A DNA stretch of 33,632 nucleotides from Sphaeroforma arctica JP610. Its lineage: Eukaryota. Below the pieces are notes generated by a model that did no database searches, was not told where the DNA came from, and worked only from the letters and a program-made list of their open reading frames with translations. The DNA lies in assembly GCF_001186125.1 (NCBI RefSeq), contig NW_014040161.1, positions 1 through 33,632 of the forward strand, in the 5' to 3' direction. Each line of letters opens with the position of its first letter. Position 1 is the first letter of the stretch. This document shows, piece after piece, positions 8,079-9,755 of this stretch. The position numbers and the translations under genes are program-made.

Positions 8079-9647
8079 AATAGTGTACCATACCCATTGC
8101 CACCCTGAAGCGACATAGTGAAGCTCCTTTCAAGTTAAATACGTATATAAATTTCATAGGTGCTTACAGGTGCAATGCAGTAACATCTGTGAACTCAACG
8201 GACAATAATGAAACCTTTGCGCCATGCAAGTGCCTGATAGCTACACGAATGCATGTGTACAAAACCATATAGAACCAGTCAACACGCTGTTCAGGAAAAG
8301 ACGTAAACATAGTTGCGCGCGTGACGAATGGTGGTATGGATACTATGCTGAACCTTTCCCGTTGGTGCAATATCTGATTTCGACTGTTTACGAATGAAAA
8401 TATCCATCTGTGCGTGCGACTGGGGTGTGATGACAGATAACAGGCAACCGAATACGTCTGAAGAAGCTTTGCGTGTGTTTATAACTTCTTTTGTGAACTA
8501 TGGCAATGATGAGTTATAACCGCCTTCTCGCAAGCGCACGTAATCGACTGTGAAGCACACTTAACGGGAGTGCAGGACTGCTTACGTGTGCAATCTCTTG
8601 CATCCACCACGTTCAAAATTAAATTGCAAATGTCATGGTTGGTGTATACCGAAATTGTTGCCAACGCTTAAAATTCAGTCGTGATATGTCGAGCGCTAAC
8701 TCCCTCACCCACTAGACCTATGCGATAAATAGTGCATTGACGACAGAAACGTGGAACACAACGAATATATTTTCATAATATGAAACTACAACTAGCATAG
8801 TCTCGTGCTTCTATTGTTATAGTGTCAGAGACTACATATAAGCCCTCGGGCAATCCAGTCTGAATGCGAGATAAATTAAGCTAAGTCATTACCATTCCGA
8901 CGCGCCACTACTTGCTCAGCGGAGAGTGAAATGGAAGCCCTTTTTAAAAATATTGTATACATGTTTGTGTATGTGTACACAATACACGCAATCCCTTTAT
9001 GAAAATATAAATGTAATGTGGAAACGAATAAACGAAGACCCTTCGCATAACAAACTAACCTGACTATAAATGTGACGCATTCAGTGACCGGCAAAGGACA
9101 AAACTGTAGCCATATGACCAAAGGCCTAAGTGCGCACAGACTCTGCATCTCATGATCGACTAGCACTAGTGTAGTGCTCACATGTATGACAGTTATCACC
9201 TCGAGAATTCTAAGCAGATTCTGTCATTACAAGCAACATAGCTTAAATACAAGGTTTGTATCAATCACTCAACCGCTTGTCGCAATAGCTTAATGTTCGC
9301 ATTCACATAAAGTCAGGCGCGTATGCACCACTCACCTTTGCTCATGTTTGTGTTCAACTGCTATAATCCAACAGTCGATTCCAAATCAAAATCTACAGTA
9401 TGTCTCGTCAGTTTCCCGTGTCGGTTGTGCACATTGTGTACATATGTGTGTGTGTGTAATGTACAGCTCTTTTAGCAACTGCGCCTATATACACACCTCG
9501 CATCACCGGGCCCACATCGTTCGTGTCGTGGATATTTAATCCACTTATCGATCAAAAGACGTTGTCATTATTTTAAGATATACGTCAAGTACTGATATTA
9601 TTATTTCACGAATGTATCATCTGAATTCGCTCACCCGATTGTGAACT

Positions 9648-9736
9648 CCGCAATATCTTCGGATGCGCAGGTTCGAGTCCTGCACCTGTCATTTACTTAG
9701 CAGGTTGGCCGAGTGGTCTAAGGCGTTGTGTTTAGG
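9648..9736 (+). tRNA. Circularly permuted tRNA-Leu(UAG): 3' half 9648-9691, 7-nt spacer, 5' half 9699-9736
   Basis: 3' half: CGCAA, variable arm TATC-TTCG-GATG, T arm GCAGG-TTCGAGT-CCTGC, ACCTGTC-A73. 5' half: AGCAGGT, D arm GCCGAGTGGTCTAAGGC, TTGTG, TT-TAG-G. The halves pair into a class II cloverleaf with an A1:C72 mismatch. Confidence 0.75.
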
Positions 9737-9745
9737 AAACAATCA

Positions 9746-9755
9746 TTTTCTTTTT
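9746..9755 (+). terminator. Putative RNA Pol III terminator (TTTTCTTTTT)
   Basis: T-run starting 10 nt after the tRNA 5' half. Confidence 0.55.

Follow-up and report, generated by a model that had tools for sequence, protein, structure and literature searches.

At positions 9648-9736 of the stretch of DNA that we analyzed (33,632 nt; hereafter the window), the two halves of a tRNA-Leu(UAG) lie in permuted order, and from the sequence we judge, with a probability of roughly 0.74, that this locus is a functional type II (37/38) circularly permuted nuclear tRNA gene in a host that is likely an ichthyosporean. The reading as a permuted gene is based on the gene order, the cloverleaf of the rebuilt tRNA, its identity elements, the complementarity of the flanks, a downstream T-run, and the presence of the same order in a related organism. 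The features concerned are as follows.

9594-9607, forward strand: TATA-like AT-rich stretch ~30-45 nt 5' of the leader, judged by eye, a candidate external Pol III promoter.
9637-9647, forward strand: leader (flank pairing test, ViennaRNA).
9648-9691, forward strand: tRNA 3' half, 44 nt, positions 38-73, from C38 to A73 (sequence, ARAGORN, circular scan), with the 3' strand of the anticodon stem, a long variable arm, the T arm, the 3' strand of the acceptor, and A73.
9670-9679, forward strand: B box, in the T arm of the 3' half.
9692-9698, forward strand: spacer that separates the 3' half from the 5' half, 7 nt.
9699-9736, forward strand: tRNA 5' half, 38 nt, positions 1-37 (sequence, ARAGORN, circular scan), with the 5' strand of the acceptor, the D arm, the anticodon stem, and the anticodon loop through G37.
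9706-9716, forward strand: A box, in the D arm of the 5' half.
9733-9735, forward strand: anticodon UAG.
9737-9744, forward strand: trailer, AAA and then five leader-pairing bases (flank pairing test, ViennaRNA).
9746-9755, forward strand: T4 run and then T5 run, Pol III terminator-like (seen in the sequence).
13365-33486, reverse strand: DNA polymerase gamma (POLG) gene, 22 exon matches (protein comparison, tree).

The 3' half, the spacer, and the 5' half follow one another on one strand, with the tRNA split between positions 37 and 38, and the places that the original prediction had assigned to the halves, the spacer, and the T-run all held on re-examination. In the rebuilt tRNA, (i) the anticodon stem has four Watson-Crick pairs and one G.U, as predicted; (ii) the T stem has 5 bp; (iii) the variable stem, within the 3' half, has 4 bp and is closed by a UUCG loop; and (iv) the acceptor stem has five Watson-Crick pairs and G2.U71. 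The expected base is present at 16/16 conserved tRNA positions checked, CCA is not encoded after A73, and the spacer is free of a Pol III T-run, which comes after the 5' half. In its order, spacer length, 37/38 junction, cloverleaf, flank pairing, T-run, AT-rich upstream stretch, and lack of an encoded CCA, the locus agrees with type II permuted genes; this anatomy matches the type II (37/38) genes of PMC3978253 and supports the original interpretation.

Table 1 of PMC9976931 gives A73, C3-G70, A4-U69, G5-C68, U8:A14, and a long variable arm as eukaryotic leucine determinants, and all six of these listed features occur in the rebuilt tRNA, so that the leucine identity first proposed from A73, G37, and the length of the variable arm now extends to the tabulated eukaryotic set. 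The D arm is identical to that of an ordinary Leu(UAG) gene in sequence L002. Positions 1-891 of L002 hold a eukaryote-type tRNA cluster of five genes in 450 nt (Gly, Gly, Leu, Leu, Leu), next to which a stretch on the opposite strand resembles a 5S rRNA gene. Positions 1-1104 of another sequence, L001, hold ten eukaryote-type tRNA genes within 1.1 kb on one strand, and this could be a giant-virus cluster.

The main doubt concerns the acceptor end. The six acceptor pairs of the original prediction, including G2.U71, stand; the seventh, 1:72, is an A.C mismatch that the prediction had not flagged, leaving 6/7 pairs. A1.C72 on top of G2.U71 makes a weak acceptor end and is a point against function; it may be tolerated, it may (speculatively) be repaired after processing, or it may be a sign of decay. 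It counts toward a reading in which the permuted copy at this locus is dead or dying, or in which the locus is the inner relic left by tandem duplication of an intron-bearing tRNA-Leu gene; either would give no charged tRNA, with Leu(UAG) supplied by another gene. The standard origin model, a tandem duplication with loss of the outer exons, would also leave pairing, intron-derived flanks around such a relic (PMC3978253). We consider this reading unlikely. The T-run lies directly behind the trailer, and the outer halves have left no significant trace, while in the inner halves none of the conserved and identity positions checked has been lost. Relics of the outer halves were sought in 200 nt on each side, where none was significant (99/988 and 125/987 random stretches did as well), and outer halves without a trace beside intact inner halves are as expected if selection keeps the inner halves.

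Next to the halves, the flanks can pair across the junction. Leader positions 9637-9641 and trailer positions 9740-9744 form an outer helix (h') of five Watson-Crick pairs, and anticodon-loop positions 35-32 are possible partners of 9642-9645 in a central helix (H) of 4 bp. There are also a 3-nt 3' splice bulge, made of 9646-9647 and C38, and a 5-nt 5' splice bulge, made of G36-G37 and the trailer AAA; 9645:U32 occupies the place expected for the anticodon-intron pair of eukaryotes. When 200,000 flank pairs were drawn at random from the window, 37 had H together with an h' of 5 Watson-Crick bp, under criteria fixed after the locus had been seen. In ViennaRNA, h' is part of the predicted fold; the pair probability was 0.95 for h' and 0.01 or less for H. 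The BHB-like conformer, which contains H, had an energy of -24.1 kcal/mol, whereas another register reached -29.7, lower by 5.6 kcal/mol, and the minimum was -32.4; the BHB-like arrangement is not the lowest-energy fold. Folding z-scores of the whole precursor were only -0.75 and -1.02. The junction motif is a relaxed BHB, not a strict hBHBh'. Relaxed BHB forms are listed among permuted tRNA genes in PMC3978253, and according to PMC4090602 eukaryotic tRNA endonucleases take their measure from the tRNA body and accept local motifs that are loose, so that the unfavorable energy of H weakens the BHB argument without removing it. This leader and trailer pairing, the A1.C72 mismatch, and the copies in related organisms are additions to the original prediction.

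ARAGORN found no tRNA gene in the linear window, nor in a 200-nt stretch with the halves in native order, and a standard scanner thus misses the gene, as had been expected. With the halves swapped in silico, it called an 82-nt tRNA-Leu(tag), in agreement with the predicted tRNA-Leu(UAG); with the flanks retained between the swapped halves, it called a gene with a 37/38 intron, placing the anticodon, and the insertion directly after G37, where the break had been predicted. A circular scan, in which 130-nt slices were treated as circles, gave seven matches, all overlapping the locus (six calls of Leu and one of Val, the latter from an edge slice), and dinucleotide shuffles gave 0/20 with any match, the step being 10 nt for the real window and 20 nt for the shuffles. 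A pattern scan for permuted order, using a pattern that recovers the window's own locus, gave three matches in metagenomes, 3/3 of them ordinary tandem tRNA clusters, and none in viral contigs. In Rfam, a 98-nt stretch matched the 5' part of tRNA (14.6 bits), the 3' end of tmRNA (10.8 bits), and YrlA (14.4 bits), all truncated and below threshold, and an E-value scan of 8000-11500 gave three chance-level matches and none at the tRNA locus. An identity as a YrlA Y RNA (RF02553) was rejected, the gathering score being 69. These Y RNA mimics have a T arm, an acceptor-like stem, and a D arm in linear order, as here, but they are bacterial and lack an anticodon arm.

Of 249 sampled words of 8500-11000, a fraction of 0.98-0.99 is present in 15 of the 24 sequencing runs listed (five studies), these 15 being the runs with at least half of the words, and 10 of them (three studies) bear no mark as a possible source. 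Contigs of four runs, X18, X19, X20, and X24, were mapped; no run in the list is recorded as RNA, and these four are probably mRNA libraries. X24 is coded as organism B but shares its species label with a run of organism A, and X20 is organism C, with flanks ~6% diverged from the window. Two contigs of organism C carry the permuted order. The first, record 9, spans 9642-9705 (the end of the leader, then the 3' half with the same spacer behind it, and 7 nt at the start of the 5' half) with two other letters, and it joins the same downstream flank at 10371-10393; record 12 covers that flank too. The second, record 10, spans 9647-9714 with a spacer 4 nt shorter, a different leader and unrelated upstream sequence, and C61U; its leader can be fitted to H only if a 2-nt bulge is allowed, and this single contig, of depth 3.3, may be degenerate or erroneous. 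Record 18 of X24, a 1198-nt contig of depth 190, ends in 47 nt identical to 9645-9691 behind another leader, which by eye has three changes in 11 nt relative to the window leader and a changed -4 base that could pair with U33. The contig stops at A73, short of any 5' half, and because it has no 5' half upstream, its sequence is likely that of a second permuted locus. None of the contigs of X18 or X19 falls on the tRNA, and these two runs carry no weight either way. Positions 9715-9744 are uncovered by contigs of the four runs, and the related copies are thus known without their anticodon; the joint from 9736 to 9648 does not occur in these contigs, which are of a kind that cannot show its absence.

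The same data bear on an assembly artefact, in which ordinary tRNA halves would have been joined in the wrong order, a possibility raised with the original prediction. It is largely refuted and now scarcely credible: the sampled words of 8500-11000 occur in runs that are not marked as a source, the two contigs of organism C independently show the 3' half, the spacer, and the 5' half in this order and so argue against misassembly, and a misjoin would not yield flanks that pair in the splice register. The two contigs also show that the permuted order occurs in a related organism. As for a dead or dying copy, the existence of other copies means that the one in the window may be redundant, and its differences from organism C, not significantly fewer in the tRNA stretch than in the flanks (2/64 and 33/514, respectively, p = 0.41), leave room for such a copy; against this, order and spacer are the same in the ~6%-diverged organism C, for which no position-1 difference is listed in a table that omits letters near contig ends.

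In organism C (records 9 and 11), a contig leaves the tRNA 5' half at 9705 and resumes 665 nt on at 10371, and five extra bases at 10370 in this organism create an AG acceptor as well as a 7-nt microhomology. This joint is likely a spliced read-through RNA of the forward strand, with a template switch or a deletion allele being possible. That the last base of record 18, which comes from another locus, is the discriminator A73 itself may reflect a graph branch at differing spacers or the tRNase Z end of a long transcript. Both contigs can be cited for the view that the locus is a tRNA-like module in a longer Pol II or noncoding transcript, serving as a cleavage signal or mimic (mascRNA-like, or with a topology like that of YrlA) and not as a decoding tRNA: record 9 resembles a spliced forward-strand RNA that leaves from a GT inside the 5' half, and record 18 ends at A73, although contigs cannot prove an RNA end. 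The weak YrlA match points the same way, but its 14.4 bits fall far under the gathering score, and a mimic needs neither an anticodon arm with U33, UAG, and G37 nor a 37/38 break, flanks in splice register, and a leucine identity set. We regard such a module as quite improbable and favor the permuted tRNA gene.

The host was placed through POLG. Among 199 proteins compared, the best match was CFRG1421T1 of Creolimax fragrantissima (66.5% identity over 962 aligned residues; 1406 summed bits), and the next-best reached 775 summed bits; identity to the animal and fungal rows of the POLG tree was 45-54%. In that tree, the window is sister to Creolimax fragrantissima with a support of 100/100 and a path length of 0.83, versus 4.4 to the nearest animal, in accord with the opisthokont host of the original prediction. 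The tree has 17 rows, 16 of them chosen from the 199 proteins; a single ichthyosporean is among them, choanoflagellates and filastereans are absent, and the window exons were picked using a Creolimax query; because of this sparse sampling and choice of exons, the sequence makes an ichthyosporean near Creolimax a likely host and no firmer placement than that. Sphaeroforma is an intron-dense sibling of Creolimax (PMC5560861).

Around the tRNA, a minus-strand exon at 9336-9495 lies 150-300 nt away in divergent orientation. Contigs join it to at least four upstream places (by eye near 5571, 6005, 6618, and 6716), and two of these joints have GT-AG-type ends, suggesting alternative 5' splicing of the left-hand gene. 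Pfam detected no family in five open frames of that gene (970-3640). Long tandem repeat arrays occupy 7100-7680, 14700-15760, 17500-18500, 23850-24040, and 27680-28000; several lie inside POLG introns and begin at exon edges, and a AAACCCTAAA-like motif recurs in many introns.

The literature searched confines permuted nuclear tRNA genes to algae (red and green), nucleomorphs of algal origin, and a single archaeon, and treats them as peculiar to algae or archaea and linked with upstream promoters and relaxed splicing. Table 1 of a 2014 review (PMC3978253) lists 34 such genes from six algal genomes and Thermofilum, with halves 1-74 nt apart; the UAG anticodon of the window gene is absent among these 34. 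Type II permuted genes are frequently the sole ones for their anticodon. Within their available parts, a 2026 review (PMC13578239) and a preprint on Auxenochlorella (PMC12633428) likewise cite permuted tRNAs only from algae, nucleomorphs, and archaea. By the titles and abstract openings listed, the literature searched holds no report of a permuted tRNA gene in any opisthokont, in line with the original prediction, which knew of none.

The closest parallels are the type II genes of Cyanidioschyzon merolae, among them Leu(CAG) and Gly(CCC), with intervening sequences of 9 and 7 nt, respectively (PMC3978253, Table 1). According to that review, the window gene has in common with them (i) the 3'-before-5' order, the 37/38 break, the short acceptor-stem spacer, and BHB-type flanks, as well as (ii) an upstream AT-rich stretch, of the kind that precedes algal permuted genes, a downstream T-run, no encoded CCA, and a class II tRNA. 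Unlike them, it has the A1.C72 mismatch, and its host is an opisthokont that lacks photosynthesis and has a large genome rich in introns and repeats; moreover, a circle and charging were demonstrated for the C. merolae genes (PMC3978253), whereas for the window gene they are predictions. The permuted tRNAs of Ostreococcus, Micromonas, the Bigelowiella nucleomorph (Maruyama 2010, in the table of PMC3978253), and Auxenochlorella (PMC12633428) are almost all type II, enriched in Leu and Ser, and missed by standard scanners, as here. Those organisms are Archaeplastida or derived from one, whereas the present host is a holozoan, and a holozoan host outside Archaeplastida would imply that permutation arose independently or that the capacity for it is much older. 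The tRNA-iMet and tRNA-Tyr genes of Thermofilum pendens share the permuted order and a very short spacer, but they are archaeal, have a 59/60 junction, and encode CCA (PMC3978253, Table 1). The architecture is already known, then, and the interest lies in the lineage, in what looks like a small family of copies, and in the mismatch at the first pair; the locus likely extends functional type II permuted tRNA genes to a new supergroup.

If the gene follows the pathway known from algae (PMC3978253), Pol III would likely transcribe it from just 5' of 9637 to the T-run, giving a precursor of leader, 3' half, spacer, 5' half, and trailer. Because the A box comes second, after the B box, transcription would likely rely on the AT-rich stretch at 9594-9607. 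The precursor would fold into an ordinary tRNA body with loose ends in the place of the intron, and the tRNA splicing endonuclease, with this body as its ruler, would cut after G37 (9736) and before C38 (9648). A ligase would then close a circular intermediate, from which RNase P and tRNase Z would excise the 7-nt spacer, and addition of CCA would yield a product predicted to read CUA and CUG codons. The gene itself likely arose, on the model given for algal genes in the same review, by tandem duplication of an intron-bearing gene and subsequent loss of the outer exons. A bolder proposal is that ichthyosporeans independently evolved a permuted tRNA family, with several Leu loci shared between species, processed through a circle by animal-type TSEN/RtcB, transcribed without the normal A-then-B box order, and carrying a conserved A1.C72 end that 5'-end repair changes to G1 after transcription; we offer it tentatively, with the odds somewhat against it.

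If the permuted reading is true, Pol III and a tRNA splicing machinery of the opisthokont type are able to produce a tRNA by way of a circle, and a case beside the animal lineage would favor a repeated, independent origin of such genes from intron-bearing ones. The tRNA inventories of holozoan protists obtained with standard scanners would, in that event, be incomplete. The locus would also offer a new system for two questions, namely how a gene is transcribed with its B box before its A box, and what lets RNase P and tRNase Z act on a circle whose 7-nt loop sits on a first pair that is mismatched.
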